This document shows positions 1 through 7,184 of a stretch of 7,184 nucleotides of DNA, piece by piece. Both the position numbers and the translations under genes were made by a program. Numbering within the stretch: the stretch's first letter is position 1; each line of letters starts with the position of its first letter. The stretch is taken from the IMG/VR virus record IMGVR_UViG_2617270940_000007, positions 1-7,184 of that record; one strand, given 5' to 3'. The stretch comes from a virus (lineage: Duplodnaviria; Heunggongvirae; Uroviricota; Caudoviricetes). The notes under the pieces were generated by a model that was given only the letters and a program-made list of their open reading frames with translations, was not told where the DNA came from and did no database searches.

Positions 1-65
1 AACCAATATCACTTAAATAAGTGATAGTCTTAATACTAGTTTTTAGACTAGTCATTGGAGAGCAG

Positions 66-431
66 ATGATTGATGTCTTAGGACCGGAGAAACGCAGACG
101 GCGTACTACACAGGAAAAGATCGCTATTGTTCAGCAGAGTTTTGAACCGGGAATGACGGTCTCCCTTGTTGCCCGGCAACACGGTGTGGCAGCCAGCCAG
201 TTATTTCTCTGGCGCAAGCAATACCAGGAGGGAAGTCTTACTGCTGTGGCCGCAGGAGAGCAGGTCGTTCCTGCCTCTGAACTTGCTGCTGCCATGAAGC
301 AGATTAAAGAACTCCAGCGCCTGCTCGGCAAAAAAACGATGGAAAATGAACTCCTTAAAGAAGCCGTTGAATACGGGCGTGCAAAAAAGTGGATAGCGCA
401 CGCGCCCTTATTGCCCGGGGATGGGGAGTAA
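66..431 (+). CDS. insC: IS2 transposase OrfA (InsC), 121 aa, helix-turn-helix DNA-binding subunit
   Basis: ORF-track protein [40 protein letters not shown]... matches IS2 InsC as I recall it; chosen start is the ATG at 66 rather than the ORF-track upstream extension at 21. Confidence 0.9.
383..389 (+). other. Programmed -1 ribosomal frameshift motif A_AAA_AAG of IS2 (orfA to orfB)
   Basis: Heptamer aaaaaag at 383-389 in the insC frame (A-K-K-W) exactly where the insD frame opens; A6G slippery sites are the established mechanism in IS3-family elements. Confidence 0.75.
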
Positions 432-1294
432 GCTTAGTCAGCCGTTGTCTCCGGGTGTCGCGTGCGCAGTTGCACGTAATTCTCAGACGAACCGATGACT
501 GGAAAGATGGTCGCCGCAGCCGTCACTCAGATGATACGGATGTGCTTCTCCGTATACACCATGTTATCGGAGAGCTGCCCACGTATGGTTATCGTCGGGT
601 ATGGGCGCTGCTTCGCAGACAGGCCGAACTTGATGGTATGCCTGCGATCAATGCCAAACGTGTTTACCGGATCATGCGCCAGAATGCGCTGTTGCTTGAG
701 CGAAAACCCGCTGTACCGCCATCGAAACGGGCACATACTGGCAAAGTGGCCGTGAAAGAAAGCAATCAACGATGGTGCTCTGACGGGTTCGAGTTCCGCT
801 GTGATAACGGAGAAAAACTGCGAGTCACGTTCGCGCTGGACTGCTGTGACCGTGAGGCACTGCACTGGGCAGTCACTACGGGCGGCTTCGACAGTGAAAC
901 AGTACAGGACGTAATGCTGGGAGCGGTGGAACGCCGCTTCGGCAACGAGCTTCCGGCGTCTCCAGTAGAGTGGCTGACGGATAATGGTTCATGCTACCGG
1001 GCTAATGAAACACGGCAGTTTGCCCGGATGTTGGGGCTTGAACCGAAGAACACGGCGGTGCGGAGTCCGGAGAGTAACGGCATAGCAGAGAGCTTCGTGA
1101 AAACGATAAAGCGTGACTACATCAGTATCATGCCTAAACCAGACGGGTTAACGGCAGCAAAGAACCTTGCAGAGGCGTTCGAGCATTATAACGAATGGCA
1201 TCCGCATAGTGCACTGGGTTATCGCTCGCCACGGGAATATCTGCGGCAGCAGGCCAGTAATGGGTTAAGTGATAACAGGTGTCTGGAAATATAG
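389..1294 (+). CDS. insD: IS2 transposase OrfB (InsD), DDE catalytic domain; expressed as InsCD fusion by -1 frameshift
   Basis: 301-aa ORF in the -1 frame relative to insC, overlapping its 3' end; GTG start at 389 lies inside the slippery heptamer; stop TAG at 1292-1294 inside the right inverted repeat. Confidence 0.9.
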
Positions 1295-1305
1295 GGGCAA
1301 ATCCA
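1265..1305. repeat. IS2 right terminal inverted repeat (IRR)
   Basis: Terminal ~41 bp ending ...tggaaatataggggcaaatcca; the matching left repeat lies outside the window, so pairing cannot be verified here. Confidence 0.6.
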
Positions 1306-1679
1306 CCTACTGCCATTACCCACACTTTCATCATTTCACGTAAACGAAGAGAAAAGCGCACCTGCCATTACTCCATACACGGAGAAGAACAATCACCAAA
1401 ACGACGGGAACAACCCAGACGAAAACACAGAGAAGAACCACCTCAAGAAGAACGAAACCACATACGCCGGTAGAGAGTACAAACCACCCATTTCACCCAC
1501 AGGAATAGTCGCCGTATTGAGCGTTATCAGAGAGAAGGTTTATGCCCACATAAGAGAGAAAATTCGAGGGAGGTATAAGTGGGAAGGGGAAGAGGGGTAT
1601 CGCTACTTTTTCCGTATAAATTCAAGCCATAGTTTTCGTCCCCCGTAACGTCCCTATCCACCCCTTCGGTCAGCCTTCG

Positions 1680-1830
1680 GGCCATCCAGGGAAAAGGCCA
1701 TGTCCCTTTTCAGGAACGGGAGCGTCGCCGCAGGGAAAAGGCTGGAGGTTTTCAGGGAAACGGTGGGAATCCCGCTGTACGAACCGGGAAAAGGCTGGCT
1801 GCCGGTCGGGAAACGGGTACATCCCGGTAC
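1680..1830. repeat. GC-rich array of ~6 degenerate direct repeats (core GGGAAA(A/C)GG, ~22-bp period); iteron-like or protein-binding array
   Basis: Units cagggaaaaggc (~1687), caggaacggg (~1711), cagggaaaaggc (~1731), cagggaaacgg (~1753), ccgggaaaaggc (~1784), cgggaaacggg (~1807); no credible ORF across it. Confidence 0.5.
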
Positions 1831-2134
1831 AGAGTGAGGGACGACTGCGGGAGCGGTGCGGGAAATCTTCGGGAGTGCGCCTTACTCTTCACTCGCCTGA
1901 AAATCGCGGGGGAGTGTCATTCCCTCTCGTGCAGCTACTGGACTCCAGTCTGCCAGACCATCATCGGGTCTCAAGCGATTTCAGTAGGTTTTCGGGGAGA
2001 AGAAAATTCTGCCCACCAGCCCCGCGGCGCGCGTAGAGCAGAATATCGTAAATACTGGCTCCCGTGTCGTTCCCGGATATTCACTGCCCAGCCTGGCTTT
2101 CCCGACATAAAATCCTTTTTCGCCTTTGTCTTAT

Positions 2135-2170
2135 TGCGATAATAACACCAATAAGTAAACAACATATTTA
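2135..2170 (+). promoter_or_regulatory. Promoter module A: extended -10 (TGcGATAAT) followed by degenerate AAACAA-N-ATTTA operator-like element
   Basis: ttgcgataataacaccaataagtaaacaacatattta aligns with modules D (4651-4686) and E (5135-5170); lies ~30 bp upstream of RBS gagga and ATG 2202. Confidence 0.4.
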
Positions 2171-2201
2171 GACGTTATAGAAACGAAGTGAGGATGAAGA
2201 G

Positions 2202-2418
2202 ATGATTAAGATGCCTGTGACGGTTGAGGTGTGGGGCGTGGATTCCCTGGCTGAGTGTCTGGATGCAGTGGGGCCGGAGTTGTACCGCAAGTTGTGGTCG
2301 TTCGTCCCGCAGAAGGGGAATCGCCCAAAGGGAAGGATATCTGGCATCTGCTGAGTGAAGATGAAAAGCGGGAGCTGGTGGACGCGGTACACAGCGAGTT
2401 CCCGGAGGACGAAGATTA
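2202..2418 (+). pseudogene. Small ORF (~72 aa if repaired) split by an apparent frameshift near 2331-2336; hypothetical protein
   Basis: RBS gagga 8 nt before ATG 2202; frame 0 gives MIKMPVTVEVWGVDSLAECLDAVGPELYRKLWSFVPQKGNRPKG then stops at 2352-2354; the -1 frame continues KDIWHLLSEDEKRELVDAVHSEFPEDED to TAA ~2416-2418. Both halves look protein-like. Below the ORF-track length cutoff. Confidence 0.3.
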
Positions 2419-2510
2419 AGAGTGAGGTCACCAGCACGGTGGCTTTTGTCGCTATTAACCTCCGGGGCAGCGCAGCACCGTAACGATATACTCTGTGGCC
2501 GTTTTCTTAC

Positions 2511-2548
2511 TGGTATTGTTTACGCAATTCAGAAAACAACATGTTTAA
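2511..2548 (+). promoter_or_regulatory. Promoter module B: extended -10 (TGgTATTGT) plus AAACA-aca-TGTTT palindrome in the 5' UTR
   Basis: ctggtattgtttacgcaattcagaaaacaacatgtttaagga; near-identical in layout to module C (2992-3037); immediately precedes RBS aagga and ATG 2559. Confidence 0.5.
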
Positions 2549-2558
2549 GGATTGCTTT

Positions 2559-2888
2559 ATGTTTGCAAATATCGACATCAACCAAATCAAGAAAATGACT
2601 CAAAAAGAGTTTGACCAGTTTTATGAGTTAGAAGGTTGGTCTTCCACGCTGATCAATTCGCGCTGGGTGCTTGAGCTGATGACTCGTGATGATGCTCCTG
2701 CTTTGATTATTTGCGACATGGGTGAAGATGCTGACTTTATGGATATGAGCGAATTTTGTGTGGACACATACAACCGCAGCCAGAAGTACTACTTCACATG
2801 CGATAGCGAGAATGACGTGATTTCTAAGCTCTATCTTCACCTTGTCCAGCATTGGGACGTGCAGGAATTCCTTGAGTTATTCGCGTAA
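2559..2888 (+). CDS. Hypothetical small acidic protein, 109 aa (cassette gene 1)
   Basis: ORF-track 2541..2888; start moved to ATG 2559 because 2541 lies inside the operator palindrome and 2559 has an aagga RBS at suitable spacing; followed by a hairpin at 2898-2920. No recognisable family. Confidence 0.6.
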   Translation: MFANIDINQIKKMTQKEFDQFYELEGWSSTLINSRWVLELMTRDDAPALIICDMGEDADFMDMSEFCVDTYNRSQKYYFTCDSENDVISKLYLHLVQHWDVQEFLELFA

Positions 2889-2897
2889 GCCCAACCA

Positions 2898-2925
2898 AAG
2901 CCAGCACCGCCTGCTGGCTTAACTT
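2898..2925 (+). terminator. Hairpin (aagccagc-accgcct-gctggctt) with weak U-tract; putative terminator of gene 1
   Basis: 8-bp inverted repeat 10 nt after the stop codon; downstream tract ttaacttctc is only moderately T-rich. Confidence 0.4.
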
Positions 2926-2991
2926 CTCTGTAGCCGTAGGGAAGAACCACCTTTAGATAATTCATGTGCCTGAGCAATATGCTTTGTAGCC

Positions 2992-3037
2992 GTTTTTACA
3001 CTGGTATTATTTACGCCATTGAGAAAACAATTTGTTT
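2992..3037 (+). promoter_or_regulatory. Promoter module C: extended -10 (TGgTATTAT) plus AAACAA-t-TTGTTT palindrome in the 5' UTR
   Basis: gccgtttttacactggtattatttacgccattgagaaaacaatttgtttacgg; homologous to module B over ~50 bp; precedes RBS ggag and ATG 3049. Confidence 0.5.
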
Positions 3038-3048
3038 ACGGAGTAGTG

Positions 3049-3360
3049 ATGAATACTTCATTGGTGCTGGGTCTTGCTGAAGGCCAGGAGAGAAAAGAAA
3101 AACCAACCTTAATGGGGCATCTCACATTGCTGGATATCGTAGCGAATGGGACTTCTATCCGTCTGTTTCGTGAAAAAGCCATTACCTTCGACGCGGGCAA
3201 TTTTACGCGCTATGTGATGGTAGTTCGTCGCCGGCGTGGAAGAGGGTGGATGTCGGTCCAGAAAATGTGGCCAGAGGACCAGCTTGAACTGGCGCTGATG
3301 GAAGCTAACCGTGTCGCCCAACAAGAGATCCAACGAGCGTCTGTTCAGGCGGTAGCTTAA
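3049..3360 (+). CDS. Hypothetical protein, 103 aa (cassette gene 2)
   Basis: ORF-track 3019..3360 begins at a TTG inside the operator; ATG 3049 preceded by ggag is the likelier start; Rho-independent terminator follows. No recognisable family. Confidence 0.55.
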   Translation: MNTSLVLGLAEGQERKEKPTLMGHLTLLDIVANGTSIRLFREKAITFDAGNFTRYVMVVRRRRGRGWMSVQKMWPEDQLELALMEANRVAQQEIQRASVQAVA

Positions 3361-3394
3361 ACATGTGCAAGCAGTAGTTAGTCGAATGTACGAC

Positions 3395-3424
3395 AGCCCC
3401 GCCAATCCTTCGGGGCTTTTTTGT
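3395..3424 (+). terminator. Rho-independent terminator (agccccg - loop - cggggct + TTTTTT)
   Basis: GC-rich 7-bp stem with ccttcgg-type loop followed directly by a six-T run, 35 nt after the gene 2 stop. Confidence 0.7.
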
Positions 3425-3449
3425 ATTGTAAGTACTTACTTATGATAAT
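3421..3449 (+). promoter_or_regulatory. Sigma70-like promoter (TTGTAT - 17 bp - GATAAT) with a perfect 12-bp palindrome GTAAGTACTTAC in the spacer
   Basis: -35 TTGTAT at 3421-3426, -10 GATAAT at 3444-3449, spacer 17 bp; palindrome at 3428-3439 overlaps the spacer (operator-like); AT-rich leader then strong RBS aggag 6 nt before ATG 3482. Confidence 0.5.
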
Positions 3450-3481
3450 AAAATTAAAAATTAAACAATAAGGAGAGTGAA

Positions 3482-3877
3482 ATGACCGTTAAACGCGAAA
3501 ATCTGACCCTGGATATGTATTATGCATCAGAGACGGAAAATGGAGACAAAGTTGCAAAAATTACAATTGTGCTACGCGATAATGCCTCCGGCGAAGAAGT
3601 TCACACCAGTACCTTAACTCGCACCGGCGAGGCGACAAAGGGGAAATATTCGGTGCGTTACCAAAGCATCAGTAATGCTTCTGACCCTTTACTGATAAAA
3701 CTGGAAACTCATTTCCGTGGCGCGGATCAGACGTTGTTTGAAAATTTGATGAAAAAGGTCGATACGGTTTATACATCGAGTTTAAATACCAATAGTACCT
3801 GGATGGGACAACACGGTCTGCGAATAATCTCCGGCGAAAAGATCGACACCATTGTCCCTGAAAGCGTATTCGCTTAA
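3482..3877 (+). CDS. Hypothetical protein, 131 aa (cassette gene 3)
   Basis: Strong RBS aggag at 3471-3475, 6 nt before the ATG; own promoter and own terminator; no recognisable family. Confidence 0.65.
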   Translation: MTVKRENLTLDMYYASETENGDKVAKITIVLRDNASGEEVHTSTLTRTGEATKGKYSVRYQSISNASDPLLIKLETHFRGADQTLFENLMKKVDTVYTSSLNTNSTWMGQHGLRIISGEKIDTIVPESVFA

Positions 3878-3886
3878 TCCTCTTTG

Positions 3887-3916
3887 AATGGCGCGTAAAC
3901 CGCGCCATTTTCTTAT
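3887..3916 (+). terminator. Rho-independent terminator (aatggcgcg-taaac-cgcgccatt + T-rich tract)
   Basis: Perfect 9-bp inverted repeat 10 nt after the gene 3 stop, followed by ttttcttatg. Confidence 0.65.
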
Positions 3917-3921
3917 GTCCG

Positions 3922-3936
3922 ATAACAATTTGTTTT
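3922..3936 (+). promoter_or_regulatory. Operator-like palindrome AACAA-t-TTGTT (copy F of the conserved motif) upstream of gene 4
   Basis: gataacaatttgttttctg matches the core palindrome of modules B-E; the -10 context differs (GATAAC abuts the palindrome), so the promoter assignment is less certain. Confidence 0.35.
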
Positions 3937-3994
3937 CTGCCTTATCTGATTTGTGAAAATGATTTCACTGAAGCAACTTAATAAGGAAACCATC

Positions 3995-4369
3995 ATGGGA
4001 CTTGATATATATATCGAGACGCAGCCTAAAAACGATCTGAATAACGAGGCATCCAGAAAGCAGGTTGCTTACTTCCGTAAGTTCAATGCGCTCGTTGGGT
4101 GGATGGAGCGCAACGTAGGTGAAGTCGAAAATTGTGAGCTTTTAGAATTAACGATGAATGACATTTGTTTTCTGAAGGCTCATTTGATGCACATAAACGA
4201 AAGTAATTGCGAAGAGTACTTGCCTACCCAGGAAGGTTCTTTCTTCGGCAGTCAGGAGTACGATGAAGGTTACTGGCATGATGTGGGGGAGTTGAAAGAG
4301 ATTGTGGAAGATCTGATTAAGAACCACGACTTTCACAATAATAGACTGACCTTCTGCGCCTGGTGGTAA
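3995..4369 (+). CDS. Hypothetical acidic protein, 124 aa (cassette gene 4)
   Basis: ORF-track 3953..4369 starts at GTG with no RBS; ATG 3995 has aagga 7 nt upstream; stop TAA overlaps the start of the next small ORF (taaatATG). Confidence 0.55.
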   Translation: MGLDIYIETQPKNDLNNEASRKQVAYFRKFNALVGWMERNVGEVENCELLELTMNDICFLKAHLMHINESNCEEYLPTQEGSFFGSQEYDEGYWHDVGELKEIVEDLIKNHDFHNNRLTFCAWW

Positions 4370-4371
4370 AT

Positions 4372-4515
4372 ATGGGCGATTTCAAGAAACGCCTGAAGGA
4401 GAGAGCCGAGATGGTCAGAAAGCGAAACGCCTCTTCTGTCATAAGATACGCAAGGCAGTTTAGTCGCAACAACAAATCAGTTGAGGAAAAGATCCTTAGC
4501 GTAATCGGGCGATAA
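4372..4515 (+). CDS. Small basic ORF, 47 aa (or 34 aa from internal ATG 4411 with strong RBS aaggagag); possible coupled partner of gene 4
   Basis: MGDFKKRLKERAEMVRKRNASSVIRYARQFSRNNKSVEEKILSVIGR; start overlaps the upstream stop; internal ATG at 4411 has a strong SD at 7-nt spacing; Lys/Arg-rich; followed by hairpin 4521-4544. Below ORF-track cutoff. Confidence 0.3.
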   Translation: MGDFKKRLKERAEMVRKRNASSVIRYARQFSRNNKSVEEKILSVIGR

Positions 4516-4520
4516 TTATT

Positions 4521-4544
4521 AAGGCCACCAGCATTGGTGGTCTT
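4521..4544. repeat. Hairpin repeat copy 1 (aaggccacca-gcat-tggtggtctt) carrying a Chi octamer on the minus strand
   Basis: 10-bp arms with one G:T position, 4-nt loop; flanked by ttaaatgac; near-identical element at 4992-5015 with inverted loop; ccaccagc (complement of Chi GCTGGTGG) at 4525-4532. Confidence 0.6.
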
Positions 4545-4650
4545 AAATGACTTTTAATAACCGAAGGTTAGTTTGAAACCTGGCTATCAACTTCCAGAAC
4601 CTTTCTTGTGTATTCAGCCTGTATTAACTTCTTTTATGTCTTATCTACAC

Positions 4651-4686
4651 TGCGATAATTACACCAACAAGAAAACAATATGTTTA
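4651..4686 (+). promoter_or_regulatory. Promoter module D: extended -10 (TGcGATAAT) plus AAACA-ata-TGTTT palindrome in the 5' UTR
   Basis: tgcgataattacaccaacaagaaaacaatatgtttacgc; homologous to modules A and E; followed by RBS gagga (4693-4697) and ATG 4705. Confidence 0.5.
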
Positions 4687-4704
4687 CGCAGTGAGGATAT
4701 GCTC

Positions 4705-4986
4705 ATGACTGATTTCACCATTACCCCTAAAGCACAAAATGTATTCCTTGAATCATGGCTGGACTTGCCGGAAACAGAACAGCAAGAAATGGATCATGTG
4801 GAATATGACGAGCAGGTAAGCACGCGATTCTTCCACTTTGAGGGCTGCGTTTACGACATTGCCAACTTCATGCGAGATGACCGCTTCCCTGAATGGCACG
4901 CAAGCTATCCACTAAACGCCTTCGCCATGCTGATGATCCGTGTGGATGATTCAGGGGATACCATCGACATCGGTCTGCTCCACTAA
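4705..4986 (+). CDS. Hypothetical small acidic protein, 93 aa (cassette gene 5)
   Basis: ORF-track 4573..4986 would run through the promoter/operator; ATG 4705 lies 7 nt after gagga (ATG 4699 is too close to the SD). Protein MTDFTITPKAQNVFLESWLDLPETEQQEMDHVEYDEQ... is Asp/Glu-rich. No recognisable family. Confidence 0.6.
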   Translation: MTDFTITPKAQNVFLESWLDLPETEQQEMDHVEYDEQVSTRFFHFEGCVYDIANFMRDDRFPEWHASYPLNAFAMLMIRVDDSGDTIDIGLLH

Positions 4987-4991
4987 AGAGT

Positions 4992-5015
4992 AAGGCCACC
5001 AATGCTGGTGGCCTT
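4992..5015. repeat. Hairpin repeat copy 2 (aaggccacca-atgc-tggtggcctt) carrying a Chi octamer on the plus strand
   Basis: Perfect 10-bp arms; loop atgc is the reverse complement of the copy-1 loop gcat; GCTGGTGG at 5004-5011; followed by ttaaatgac as in copy 1. Confidence 0.6.
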
Positions 5016-5116
5016 AAATGACCATCCTGTTTTCTGCAGGCTAAAAACACCAACCTCTTACCTCCAGGCAACCGACAAACCCACCTGTTCCCGTCCGGCT
5101 ACCGCAACTTTCCACT

Positions 5117-5170
5117 TTGACGCCTTATTCGTACAACGATAATTAACACAAACAAGAAAACAATTTGTTA
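5117..5170 (+). promoter_or_regulatory. Promoter module E: TTGACG -35-like, cGATAAT -10, then AAACAA-t-TTGTTA palindrome in the 5' UTR
   Basis: ttgacgccttattcgtacaacgataattaacacaaacaagaaaacaatttgttatttacg; homologous to modules A and D; RBS aagga (5179-5183) 7 nt before ATG 5191. Confidence 0.5.
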
Positions 5171-5190
5171 TTTACGATAAGGAATTAATC

Positions 5191-5673
5191 ATGAATTTTA
5201 TCGCTACTGTAAACGCACCCGCACATGGCAATATCGCTGTAACGTTCTCTGACATTGAAAAACGAGTACTTGGTGCATGGCGCGACAATGAGACGGTAGA
5301 ACTGTCAGCACAAGAAAAATGCATTATTGCACGCGACATCATTGGCAATCGTCGTTACTCGCGGGTATTTGAGAAAGCATATGTGGTAAATTCTGGATTC
5401 GGAACGTTCGTCTTTCCGGTGCGCTCCGGGCGATTCTGCCAGTCCAAGCTGATTGAGTTCGCTACGCAGATTTCTGTCTGGATTAAAACTCAATCGTCGT
5501 TCAAATTTTCCGACGATGAAGCAGTATCGCAGGGGATGCGGATCGCCAACAATGCAATAAAATGCAAAAACATTACGTATGCCGCTGGCGTTGACACATG
5601 GAAACTGTTTTGCGCTAACTTTATGCTGAATGTATACGCAAGCAACCGCATCCACATCCTTGATGGCGTGTAA
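5191..5673 (+). CDS. Hypothetical protein, 160 aa (cassette gene 6)
   Basis: Good RBS, own promoter module, and a hairpin terminator immediately downstream; no recognisable family. Confidence 0.65.
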   Translation: MNFIATVNAPAHGNIAVTFSDIEKRVLGAWRDNETVELSAQEKCIIARDIIGNRRYSRVFEKAYVVNSGFGTFVFPVRSGRFCQSKLIEFATQISVWIKTQSSFKFSDDEAVSQGMRIANNAIKCKNITYAAGVDTWKLFCANFMLNVYASNRIHILDGV

Positions 5674-5676
5674 CTG

Positions 5677-5706
5677 AGAAGAGGGCCAGAAACGGCCCTT
5701 TCTCTA
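5677..5706 (+). terminator. Rho-independent terminator (agggcc-agaaac-ggccct + tttctct)
   Basis: GC-rich stem 4 nt after the stop codon, followed by a T-rich tract. Confidence 0.6.
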
Positions 5707-5716
5707 TAGCCACCAG

Positions 5717-5900
5717 CTGCCGCAGGGAAATTTTCAGAAACGGCGAGGAACGCATTCATGAGCCGAAGGGAAACGACCATGAAATTTTCTGGAAACGGCG
5801 GGGGGCGCCTTTATGTAGAAAACTGAGCGGGAGAAACCCGGAATCGCGCCAGAAATTGCGTAGCGGCGCTGGGGCAGCGCTGGTGGGGTTTCAGCCCCTG
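5717..5900. repeat. Second GC-rich repeat block (GGGAAA / GAAACGG units), homologous to the 1680-1830 array
   Basis: gccgcagggaaa...ttttcagaaacggcg matches gccgcagggaaaaggctggaggttttcagggaaacggtg in array 1, as if with a ~10-bp deletion; shared gggccatccag motif (1677-1687 and ~5892-5902); Chi octamers at both edges (5710-5717 minus strand, 5879-5886 plus strand). Confidence 0.45.
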
Positions 5901-6088
5901 GGCCATCCAGATAGCTTTCGCTATGTGATTATGTGAATCCGTGGGTAAATCACTGTAAGCGCGTACACGTTGCCCAACGTGGCAATCATATGCGAGCGGA
6001 TACAAAACAACACAAAGAGCCGATCCGCGCCGACAAATAAATGCGGATCACATAGCAAGACTAAAAGCCAATGATTAACCATACTCTA

Positions 6089-6109
6089 TAGCGCAATATA
6101 ACGCGTTTT
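6089..6109. repeat. Hairpin (taacgcg-ttttaag-cgcgtta)
   Basis: Perfect 7-bp inverted repeat in an AT-rich intergenic region; member of a local family of GCGC-stem hairpins. Confidence 0.4.
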
Positions 6110-6216
6110 AAGCGCGTTAATGTGTTAAGTAATGGGTATGTACTGACAAGGATATAAAAGCGCGTCTATGGCGTTATTTTGGTGCTTATTTTTATGTTGT
6201 TGGAGCGAGTTAAAGA

Positions 6217-6246
6217 CAATAAAAAACGCGCCAATGATGGCGCGTT
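6217..6246 (-). terminator. Hairpin (aacgcgcc-aatgat-ggcgcgtt) followed by a T-run on the minus strand; second of two tandem minus-strand terminators
   Basis: Perfect 8-bp stem; on the minus strand the stem is followed directly by TTTTTT (plus-strand aaaaaa at 6221-6226). Confidence 0.5.
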
Positions 6247-6265
6247 ATGGTGGGAGTATTGGAAA

Positions 6266-6290
6266 CGAAAAAAGCGCCCATAGTGGGCGC
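6266..6290 (-). terminator. Rho-independent terminator of the 76-aa minus-strand gene (gcgccca-tag-tgggcgc + TTTTTT)
   Basis: Perfect 7-bp stem 6274-6290, followed on the minus strand by six T; lies 7 nt past the stop codon (6297-6299) of the 6297..6527 gene; the same 17-bp palindrome recurs at 6547-6563. Confidence 0.7.
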
Positions 6291-6296
6291 TCGATT

Positions 6297-6527
6297 TTAT
6301 TTGTGTAAACTAATTTTGAATCCCATTTCTACAAACGCTTTTAACATTAAAAATATATCAGCGTCATTCACGTCTGCTTTTTTTCGCTCCTGGTCGTTCA
6401 ATAAGTCAATTTTGCGCGTTGTTTCATTTATAAACTCGACTGCGCGCCCAGCGATCCCAGCGATCCCAGCGATGCGATTAACATAATATTCATTATGGAC
6501 GTTAACGCCAGCGATAAGAACAAACAT
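6297..6527 (-). CDS. Hypothetical small protein, 76 aa, containing an in-frame (IAG)x3 tandem repeat
   Basis: Minus-strand ORF with strong SD aaggag 7 nt before the ATG; bracketed by two identical 17-bp hairpins (6274-6290 and 6547-6563); terminator downstream. No recognisable family. Confidence 0.55.
   Translation of the reverse strand: MFVLIAGVNVHNEYYVNRIAGIAGIAGRAVEFINETTRKIDLLNDQERKKADVNDADIFLMLKAFVEMGFKISLHK
6447..6473. repeat. Perfect 9-bp tandem repeat (cccagcgat)x3 inside the 76-aa gene
   Basis: Three head-to-tail copies; on the coding (minus) strand atcgctggg x3 encodes Ile-Ala-Gly x3, so copy-number change would preserve frame. Confidence 0.8.
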
Positions 6528-6546
6528 GATTAAGCTCCTTAAAACT

Positions 6547-6563
6547 AGCGCCCATAGTGGGCG
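6547..6563. repeat. Second copy of the 17-bp palindrome gcgcccatagtgggcgc, between the two minus-strand genes
   Basis: Identical to 6274-6290; sits between the stop of the upstream minus-strand fragment (6578) and the SD/ATG (6527) of the 76-aa gene. Confidence 0.6.
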
Positions 6564-6577
6564 CTATATCCATCTAA

Positions 6578-6837
6578 TTACGCTTTGAAAGCATCAGCCA
6601 GATAGTTATAAAAATCATTTTTAACGAAGCGATATTGCTGTGATCCGTTTTTCGCTGCACCCATTCCTTTGATTTTTTCGACCAGTCCCAGACGTTCGCA
6701 AAGATTGATAAGCTGGTTGGCTTGAGTGTATCCTGCGTCTAATTTTATTTCGTTGGCTTTTTTCGCTTCATTCATTAAATCGAAAACAGCGCCATTGGTG
6801 AACGTGTCGATCTCGTCGTTAATCATATCGATTAATG
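6578..6837 (-). pseudogene. 3' fragment of a gene truncated at its 5' end by IS1 insertion; hypothetical protein, tentatively phage antirepressor-like C-terminal region
   Basis: Minus-strand frame stays open from the ORF-track Met (6826) up to the IS1 boundary (6837) with no stop, so the ORF runs into the IS; the antirepressor resemblance is an impression from memory only. Confidence 0.45.
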
Positions 6838-6892
6838 GGTGATGCTGCCAACTTACTGATTTAGTGTATGATGGTGTTTTTGAGGTGCTCCA

Positions 6893-7168
6893 GTGGCTTC
6901 TGTTTCTATCAGCTGTCCCTCCTGTTCAGCTACTGACGGGGTGGTGCGTAACGGCAAAAGCACTGCCGGACATCAGCGCTATCTCTGCTCTCATTGCCGT
7001 AAAACATGGCAACTACAGTTCACTTACACCGCCTCTCAGCCCGGTACGCACCAGAAAATCATTGATATGGCCATGAATGGCGTTGGATGCCGGGCAACTG
7101 CCCGCATTATGGGCGTTGGCCTCAACACGATTTTACGTCACTTAAAAAACTCAGGCCGCAGTCGGTAA
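6893..7168 (+). CDS. insA: IS1 InsA (transposition repressor / N-terminal part of the InsAB' transposase), 91 aa
   Basis: [91 protein letters not shown]; GTG start at 6893; zinc-finger-like CxxC...CxxC motif. Confidence 0.92.
7144..7150 (+). other. IS1 A6C -1 frameshift motif (insA to insB', gives InsAB' transposase)
   Basis: aaaaaac near the 3' end of insA, the established IS1 frameshift position; the insB' frame continues beyond the window. Confidence 0.7.
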
Positions 7169-7184
7169 CCTCGCGCATACAACC

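Follow-up and report, generated by a model that had tools for sequence, protein, structure and literature searches.

The stretch of viral DNA analysed here (7,184 nt, positions 1 to 7,184 of IMG/VR record IMGVR_UViG_2617270940_000007; hereafter the window) carries six copies of the octamer Chi (GCTGGTGG) within a 5.5-kb segment that is, by sequence comparison, a piece of an SSU5/pHCM2-type phage-plasmid. These elements are temperate siphoviruses that are kept as ~105-115-kb plasmids in Enterobacterales. Comparison across the family reveals that the sites belong to a Chi island that is real, local and family-wide, composed of exact octamers in many sequence contexts and patterned in their orientation. 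The exact octamer behaves as if under selection, with turnover of individual sites, and the most reasonable reading of its excess is the action of RecBCD on linear or incoming DNA. We infer that the island sites act as Chi through host RecBCD, and on balance we favour the view that the island is a selected two-way RecBCD/Chi station that would rescue linear or broken DNA of the element.

The octamers located by pattern search of the window, and the features that surround them, are listed by coordinates and strand:

1688..1830, + strand: diverged second copy of the repeat element, with GGGAAA(A/C)GG repeats, at the left edge of the Chi island
2013..2020, - strand: exact Chi (top strand CCACCAGC), intergenic, oriented to be active against RecBCD moving left to right
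2374..2381, + strand: exact Chi, in frame (GAG CTG GTG GAC) near the 3' end of the small gene 2202-2419
2428..2435, - strand: decayed Chi (TCACCAGC, one mismatch) in the hairpin that follows gene 2202-2419
4519..4546, + strand: hairpin with a 12-bp stem, TTAAGGCCACC-AGCATT-GGTGGTCTTAA, holding the exact Chi (-) at 4525-4532; dG -17.4 kcal/mol, z -5.0
4991..5017, + strand: hairpin TAAGGCCACC-AATGCT-GGTGGCCTTA, holding the exact Chi (+) at 5004-5011; dG -19.2 kcal/mol, z -4.2
5710..5717, - strand: exact Chi, 10 nt past the terminator hairpin of gene 5191-5673, forming the left bracket of the repeat element
5718..5835, + strand: highly conserved non-coding element (~110 nt), the repeat element, with three (G/A)G(G/A)AAACGGC (GGGAAACGGC-type) repeats, between Chi (-) 5710 and Chi (+) 5879
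5879..5886, + strand: exact intergenic Chi that brackets the repeat element on its right side

All six exact octamers lie in the 5.5 kb between two insertion sequences (IS), and neither the IS2 part (1-1305) nor the IS1 part (6838-7184) of the window contains one; five of the six are intergenic, the sole coding instance being 2374 (+). An earlier note on this DNA had reported five Chi octamers. Each of the five is exact at the coordinates and on the strand given there, but the note undercounted, missing 2013-2020 (-), and the exact k-mer count that it proposed as a check returns six, and so not fewer than five. Its claim of a few-fold over-representation stands, and its worry that such a density might be typical of the host does not: E. 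coli K-12 carries 1008 Chi per 4.6 Mb (PMC12315714), a density at which 1.2 would be expected in 5532 bp (Poisson P(>=6) = 0.0015). Dinucleotide-preserving shuffles of the window (n=200) average 0.20 Chi and contain at most 2, none of the 200 reaching six, and the order-3 Markov expectation for the 5.5-kb segment is 0.62. The excess in the segment is therefore ~5-fold over E. coli and ~10-30-fold over composition.

The two ends of the window were confirmed as insertion sequences by NCBIfam:

1..1305, + strand: IS2, truncated by the window start, inserted in a 1.6-kb non-coding region of the phage-plasmid; Chi-free
6838..7184, + strand: IS1, truncated by the window end, interrupting the phage-plasmid gene 6578-6837 (-); Chi-free

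Between them, positions 1306-6837 match the E. coli plasmid pYUXYEH3934-1 at 99.9% of nucleotides, many ~105-115-kb non-mobilizable plasmids of E. coli, Klebsiella, Enterobacter, Salmonella, Citrobacter and Yersinia pestis at 77-99%, Escherichia phage Cyrano at 85% and Salmonella phage SSU5 at 79%. With these matches to Enterobacterales plasmids and phages, and with IS1 and IS2 both confirmed, the enterobacterial host assumed earlier is borne out. The description of the segment as cargo of an element bounded by IS1 and IS2 has to be abandoned: in relatives that lack these insertions the same DNA is contiguous phage-plasmid backbone, and a composite transposon was rejected on the grounds that the flanking elements differ (IS2, IS1) and that the segment is continuous with the backbone. 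By this comparison IS2 and IS1 are two unrelated insertions into that backbone; the whole window is present in no record of the E. coli collection searched. In the relatives the segment follows a long run of + strand genes, with genes for a ParB-like protein, the terminase (terS/terL), portal and capsid ~9 kb further downstream, and the Chi island (~4.4 kb) lies 7.7-12 kb upstream of the terminase genes (terS).

The island was compared across 82 related loci anchored on the ortholog of gene 5191-5673 and dereplicated to 33 relatives from E. coli, Klebsiella, Enterobacter-type hosts, Salmonella and Yersinia. Chi occurs at 0.7-1.76 per kb in bins from -3 to +1 kb of the anchor and at ~0.2 per kb elsewhere within +-10 kb; pooled density is 1.26 per kb in the core and 0.23 in the +-10-kb flanks, and core exceeds flank in 33 of 33 loci. 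Each 4.4-kb core holds on average 5.5 Chi (range 2-9). Counterparts of individual sites are shared by only part of the family: 14 of 33 relatives for Chi 2013 (-), in the context CCGCAGG-Chi-GCAGnAT, 12 of 33 for Chi 2374 (+), and 22 of 33 for Chi 5710 (-). At the site of the decayed octamer 2428-2435, relatives carry an exact Chi (-), 54 nt from the (+) site, in a hairpin with the loop AGCAC (27 loci). Over whole genomes the density is host-like in both SSU5 (31 Chi in 103 kb, 0.30 per kb) and Cyrano (25 in 108 kb, 0.23 per kb), and in each the densest 4.4-kb Chi window is the region homologous to the segment studied here.

It is the exact octamer that is enriched. Among the 21,983 octamers of the pooled cores Chi ranks first, with 183 matches, more than a repeated operator motif and far above its best same-composition permutation (34 matches) or best one-mismatch neighbour (27). 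Set against the sum of its 24 one-mismatch neighbours, exact Chi gives a ratio of 0.97 in core sequence and of 0.18 in flanking sequence. The 100 distinct 30-nt Chi flanks fall into 27 unrelated context families, and no extended motif was found around Chi beyond a weak CC preference at +1/+2 that derives from hairpins. Four lineages carry non-homologous sequence on the right side of the repeat element, and each has a (+) Chi there. Eight of the nine island Chi of SSU5 and Cyrano are intergenic, whereas all 47 Chi elsewhere in the two genomes lie in annotated genes (8 of 9 against 0 of 47; Fisher p=6e-9); for E. coli it has been published that Chi is 13-fold rarer in DNA outside open reading frames (ORFs). 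The island has a low G+C content (0.41-0.48). Codon usage, G+C and duplication of a single spacer are insufficient to account for this pattern, and the exact octamer therefore looks selected.

Hairpins provide a further view of what is retained. Among the 57 hairpins of the form CCACC-N4-10-GGTGG found in the cores, 53 have a loop that supplies the three further bases of Chi, against an expectation of ~3%. In the window, hairpins 4519-4546 and 4991-5017 are homologous and their six-base loops are exact reverse complements, which places Chi on opposite strands. Loop pairs that occupy the same site in different relatives are likewise exact reverse complements (AATGCT/AGCATT; GATGCT/AGCATC; ACTGCT/AGCAGT, L008-L089, ~200 nt upstream of the anchor), and the three pairs point to at least three independent loop inversions in which Chi was kept and its polarity reversed.

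Chi orientation is also patterned. The 33 cores are strand-balanced, with 89 (+) and 94 (-) sites, and neighbouring Chi alternate in orientation in 72% of cases, a family-wide trend that is significant; the strict -,+,-,+,-,+ order of the window carries no significance when taken alone (2 of 20 arrangements). Neighbours in (+,-) order are tightly spaced (median 95 nt; 29 of 45 within 100 nt), and neighbours in (-,+) order are never so close (0 of 63 within 100 nt; median 479 nt) and enclose a gene or the repeat element. The rightmost Chi of the island is (+) in 32 of 33 loci. Chi is active only against RecBCD arriving from its 3' side, as published, and this polarity combined with the orientation grammar suggests that each spacer could serve as a two-way stop and that each unit is bracketed against enzyme coming from outside.

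The sequence of events that we propose begins with host RecBCD entering the element at a double-strand end, which might be supplied by injected linear virion DNA, restriction, fork breakage or a rolling-circle tail. From either direction the enzyme would meet several correctly oriented Chi in the island, where its degradation would end and nicking and RecA loading would follow, and the DNA would then be rescued by recombination, either through circularisation via terminal redundancy or through repair from a sister copy, as proposed for phage P1. As a by-product, exchange would be focused at gene-cassette borders, which agrees with the mosaic gene content of the array of small genes that occupies the island. 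The likeliest trigger may be a P1-like processing of virion DNA whose ends lie within or close to the island, a suggestion that we offer tentatively and rate as doubtful; it hinges on the position of the pac site and on the direction of packaging.

Several considerations weigh against a selected RecBCD/Chi station. The action of RecBCD at the island sites is deduced from sequence. SSU5 and Cyrano are annotated by their depositors with RecA/UvsX-like, UvsY, gp32-like SSB, SbcCD-like and UvsW proteins, and a published rule ties high Chi density to phages without a Rec module (PMC12315714; PMC3784561). Genome-wide Chi density in these two phages is merely host-like. The island lies upstream of terS, and if pac is within terS and packaging runs from terS to terL, as in P1, the ends of the virion DNA would be expected among the structural genes, a region of unremarkable Chi density. 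About one third of the sites are in hairpins that could serve a function of their own. Individual sites turn over, several lineages having lost Chi by single substitutions, and only two core Chi are kept in the Salmonella pHCM2-like loci (L072, L079, L086) and in Y. pestis pMT1 (L011, L080), lineages in which selection could have been relaxed in defective or differently living elements. Finally, the 33 loci are phylogenetically related, and counts and p-values overstate their independence.

Some observations concern these points. The lost sites of the Salmonella and Y. pestis pMT1 loci are single substitutions (CCACCAGT, GCCGGTGG, CCACCATC). A literature search for the termini of SSU5-like phages found no data. 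Contig starts shared among IMG/VR records were considered as physical termini and rejected as trimming artefacts, as they coincide with a stop codon or an ATG, and the record of PhiR41_1 is circular. Transcription dominates the GC skew of SSU5 and Cyrano, which gives no origin or terminus signal at the island.

The closest precedent for a Chi-rich phage-plasmid is P1. In P1, Chi is the top octamer, occurs on both strands, is dense where headful virion ends fall and is frequent in non-coding DNA (10.1101/2021.07.08.451572; PMC12315714), and P1 growth requires RecA, RecBCD and Chi recognition, presumably to circularise injected, terminally redundant DNA (10.1101/2021.07.08.451572). In the part of P1 that we analysed (the first 50 kb only), the first 22 kb hold 23 Chi (~1 per kb). 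Like P1 (and P7 and D6), the SSU5-type elements are temperate enteric phages maintained as plasmids with Chi on both strands, distributed non-randomly with a dense zone of ~1 per kb and unusually common in non-coding DNA, and they share a headful-type terminase (Terminase_6N, T4-type N-domain). They differ in that Chi is abundant throughout P1 (1 per 1.9 kb, over tens of kb), whereas SSU5-like genomes have 1 per 3.3-4.3 kb and one sharp 4.4-kb island; in that island Chi are nearly all intergenic and often in hairpins, whereas the P1 Chi that we inspected are mostly in genes; and in that the RecBCD dependence of P1 has been demonstrated, whereas the SSU5-like phages are known here from sequence and carry T4-like recombination genes.

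A second comparison is with phage LLS and the class of phages without a Rec module, in which Chi is clustered terminally (LLS; PMC12315714) or, as published for lambdoid phages, concentrated ahead of the terminase genes. The SSU5-type elements resemble this class in the clustering of Chi in the part of the genome before the terminase genes (PMC12315714; PMC3784561), in a Chi density that runs opposite to G+C, in a turnover of sites that recalls a published remark on Chi coming and going, and in the reading that Chi is selected to exploit host RecBCD. The differences are that LLS is a ~43-kb cos phage with Chi ~7:1 strand-biased toward one cos end, whereas the 105-kb SSU5 type has a balanced (89+/94-), alternating island, and that several recombination genes are annotated in SSU5 and Cyrano but absent from the LLS class. 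Measured against what characterises the P1/LLS class, then, the octamer rank is like that published for P1 and LLS (Chi is first in SSU5 with 31 copies, third in Cyrano with 25, and first in the island); a genome-wide density of ~1 per 1.9 kb is not reached (SSU5 1 per 3.3 kb, Cyrano 1 per 4.3 kb), only the 4.4-kb island exceeding it at 1 Chi per 0.8 kb; and, by the depositors' annotations, a phage recombination module is present. The sites themselves qualify as Chi by sequence (six exact octamers) and by their setting in Enterobacterales; Pseudomonas Chi is GCTGGCGC, unlike GCTGGTGG.

Among the alternatives, the one that survives best holds that Chi was selected mainly to aim RecBCD/RecA exchange at linkers composed of hairpin, promoter and operator, such that a (-)...(+) unit would outlast RecBCD entry from both ends of a fragment and then recombine into a related resident element. 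The PeSL cassettes of T4-type phages are its precedent (PMC2839356, PMC4122927): in both systems a repeated stem-loop and an early-type promoter stand between small ORFs without known function, beside variable gene content. The two have no sequence relationship; PeSLs are not reported to contain Chi (PMC2839356, PMC4122927), whereas the SSU5-type modules combine a repressor-type operator palindrome with host Chi. The repeated units of promoter and stem-loop beside variable small ORFs are found here, and the gene content of the array varies among relatives while its spacers stay conserved. In one spacer, homology breakpoints fall at or within ~30 nt of the Chi hairpin, and at least eight different left neighbours join one promoter module within that distance. 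Units have (-) as their left bracket and (+) as their right, spacers hold closely set (+,-) pairs, and RecBCD is published to attack both ends of linear DNA entering the cell. This support must be tempered by the fact that cassette borders and intergenic Chi coincide by construction, their co-location being no proof of cause, by an orientation grammar that suits a simple two-way stop in each spacer equally well, and by the indirect nature of the benefit to the element (evolvability). We regard shuffling as the chief purpose of the sites as a minority possibility. A stronger version, which seems to us about as unlikely, would make the island a purpose-built array in which cassettes and an iteron-like element are bracketed as (-)unit(+) and hairpin loop inversions toggle Chi polarity. 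RecBCD would then trim incoming or broken fragments to cassette borders and the fragments would be pasted into a related resident element, amounting to cassette exchange driven by a host enzyme in a phage with its own T4-like recombination machinery.

Less probable again is a protective role near an origin, in which Chi flanking a lytic or rolling-circle origin would block RecBCD on the tail of sigma forms and so permit concatemers without a Gam-like inhibitor. Iteron-like repeats do occur in or beside the island (the three GGGAAACGGC repeats, three ~30-nt CACCCACCT..CAGGCTACCGA repeats and the 1.6-kb non-coding stretch), Chi concentrates near the origin in lambdoid phages that are Rec-, and Chi protects rolling-circle tails (Dabert 1992, as reported in a paper that cites it). 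The plasmid RepA gene is, however, ~35 kb distant and no GC-skew switch occurs at the island, and a pac, partition or regulatory role would suit the repeats just as well. The repeat element itself was treated as a DNA-level element because RNAalifold found no covarying pairs in its 110 nt across 34 sequences, and it may be a protein-binding site, with pac, an origin or partition as candidates. Its two copies (5718-5835 and 1688-1830), ~4 kb apart, roughly delimit the Chi island.

A role of the octamer unrelated to RecBCD, as the binding site of a phage protein or as a requirement of 3' hairpins for RNA stability or termination, would suit the third of the sites that lie in conserved CCACC...GGTGG hairpins, and the operator and GGGAAACGGC motifs are likewise highly repeated in the region. 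The motif is nevertheless identical to host Chi. Its 27 contexts are unrelated, include hairpin and non-hairpin as well as coding and non-coding sequence on either strand, and keep no set spacing to promoters. In SSU5 it also ranks first among the octamers of the whole genome. The loop bases needed to make it complete are dispensable for the stem, yet are present in 93% of hairpins and kept through loop inversion. We consider such a role improbable, and the same context diversity and retention of Chi through loop inversion disfavour a neutral origin. That Chi is a neutral by-product, of duplication of a Chi-bearing spacer or of composition or codon drift toward the host, fits two of the six window sites (in duplicated hairpin modules) and a whole-genome density equal to that of E. 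coli, but is strongly disfavoured, since codon usage is no explanation for intergenic sites (8 of 9), the 27 context families are unrelated, one-mismatch neighbours are rare in an island of low G+C, and non-homologous replacements still carry (+) Chi.

Selected Chi enrichment in phages is already known, and has been argued to mark phages that depend on host RecBCD, such as P1 and the LLS-type lambdoids. The present case differs from those described in that the enrichment forms a sharp 4.4-kb island in an otherwise host-like genome, with sites nearly all intergenic and often embedded in hairpins, in its strand-balanced bracket grammar, and in its occurrence in phages with recombination genes of their own; our literature search found no link of SSU5, pHCM2, pMT1 or any phage-plasmid other than P1 to Chi. 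Phage-plasmids of the SSU5/pHCM2 type are frequent among clinical Enterobacterales and bear resistance genes, and ancestor-like relatives of Y. pestis pMT1 belong to them. If a RecBCD/Chi station is the correct reading, these elements would need host RecBCD and RecA at a set step, either establishment and circularisation after infection or recovery from breaks. The island would also allow selection on Chi itself to be argued with unusual clarity, unclouded by the codon-usage confound of the E. coli debate, and would suggest how the accessory-gene array might have acquired its mosaic of cassettes, and it draws attention to the nearby conserved repeats as pac or origin candidates. If instead the sites are inert, the commonest octamer of the region would pose a puzzle, as a sequence without a known reader.

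The remaining features of the window are mostly those of the small genes and their control regions:

2145..5170, + strand: small-gene array (2202-2419, frameshifted; 2559-2888; 3049-3360; 3482-3877; 3995-4369; 4372-4515; 4705-4986; 5191-5673)
2155-2168, 4671-4685 and 5156-5170: (G/A)AAACAAnnTGTT-type boxes of the promoter/operator module before genes 2202, 4705 and 5191, with TTGAC-like -35 and GATAAT-like -10
2532-2546 and 3023-3037: operator boxes of a related module before genes 2559 and 3049
3921-3935: operator box before gene 3995

No operator box was detected in the window upstream of genes 3482 or 4372. The palindrome AAACAAnnTGTT has ~17 copies in the SSU5 genome, terS and parA being among the genes with a copy upstream, and recurs in Cyrano too; several of the small genes have it just 3' of a sigma70-like promoter that precedes them. 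A global or master regulator probably uses it as its operator, comparable to the C1 operators of P1. A gene for an FljA-like regulator is found ~2 kb downstream in relatives.

A Pfam search with the eight small genes gave zero matches, the only assignments being PHROGs families without known function. Gene 2202-2419 is frameshifted also in the 99.9%-identical pYUXYEH3934-1, where it is annotated as a pseudogene, and its ORF is intact in relatives. The 160-aa protein encoded by gene 5191-5673 (phrog_1641) is confined to contigs of ~100-112-kb enterobacterial phage-plasmids. Its AlphaFold AF2 model is confident (pLDDT 88), and a PDB fold comparison of that model returned no match with Z>=5, so the modelled fold may be new or at least unrecognised.

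In the related locus L001, positions 14295-15896 (corresponding to <1306 to 2201 of the window) form a 1.6-kb stretch without an annotated gene, within which the IS2 of the window is inserted. The + strand of this stretch is strongly C/A-rich, with an AT skew of up to 0.34, and a promoter and operator stand at its start; it contains three tandem ~30-nt repeats (CACCCACCT..CAGGCTACCGA) and several of the form CATTACCCA..ACACGGAGAAGAACA. The 30-nt motif is found once more ahead of gene 5191, where a (+,-) pair of Chi encloses it. Rfam scans of the window (E<=1) and of L001 from 14 to 21 kb identified no credible RNA family. Toward the right end of the window, near-identical hairpins (AGCGCCCATAGTGGGCGCT) at 6268-6291 and 6542-6565 flank the small - strand gene 6297-6527, inside which a 9-nt tandem repeat, GCGATCCCA, is present in three copies at 6442-6473.

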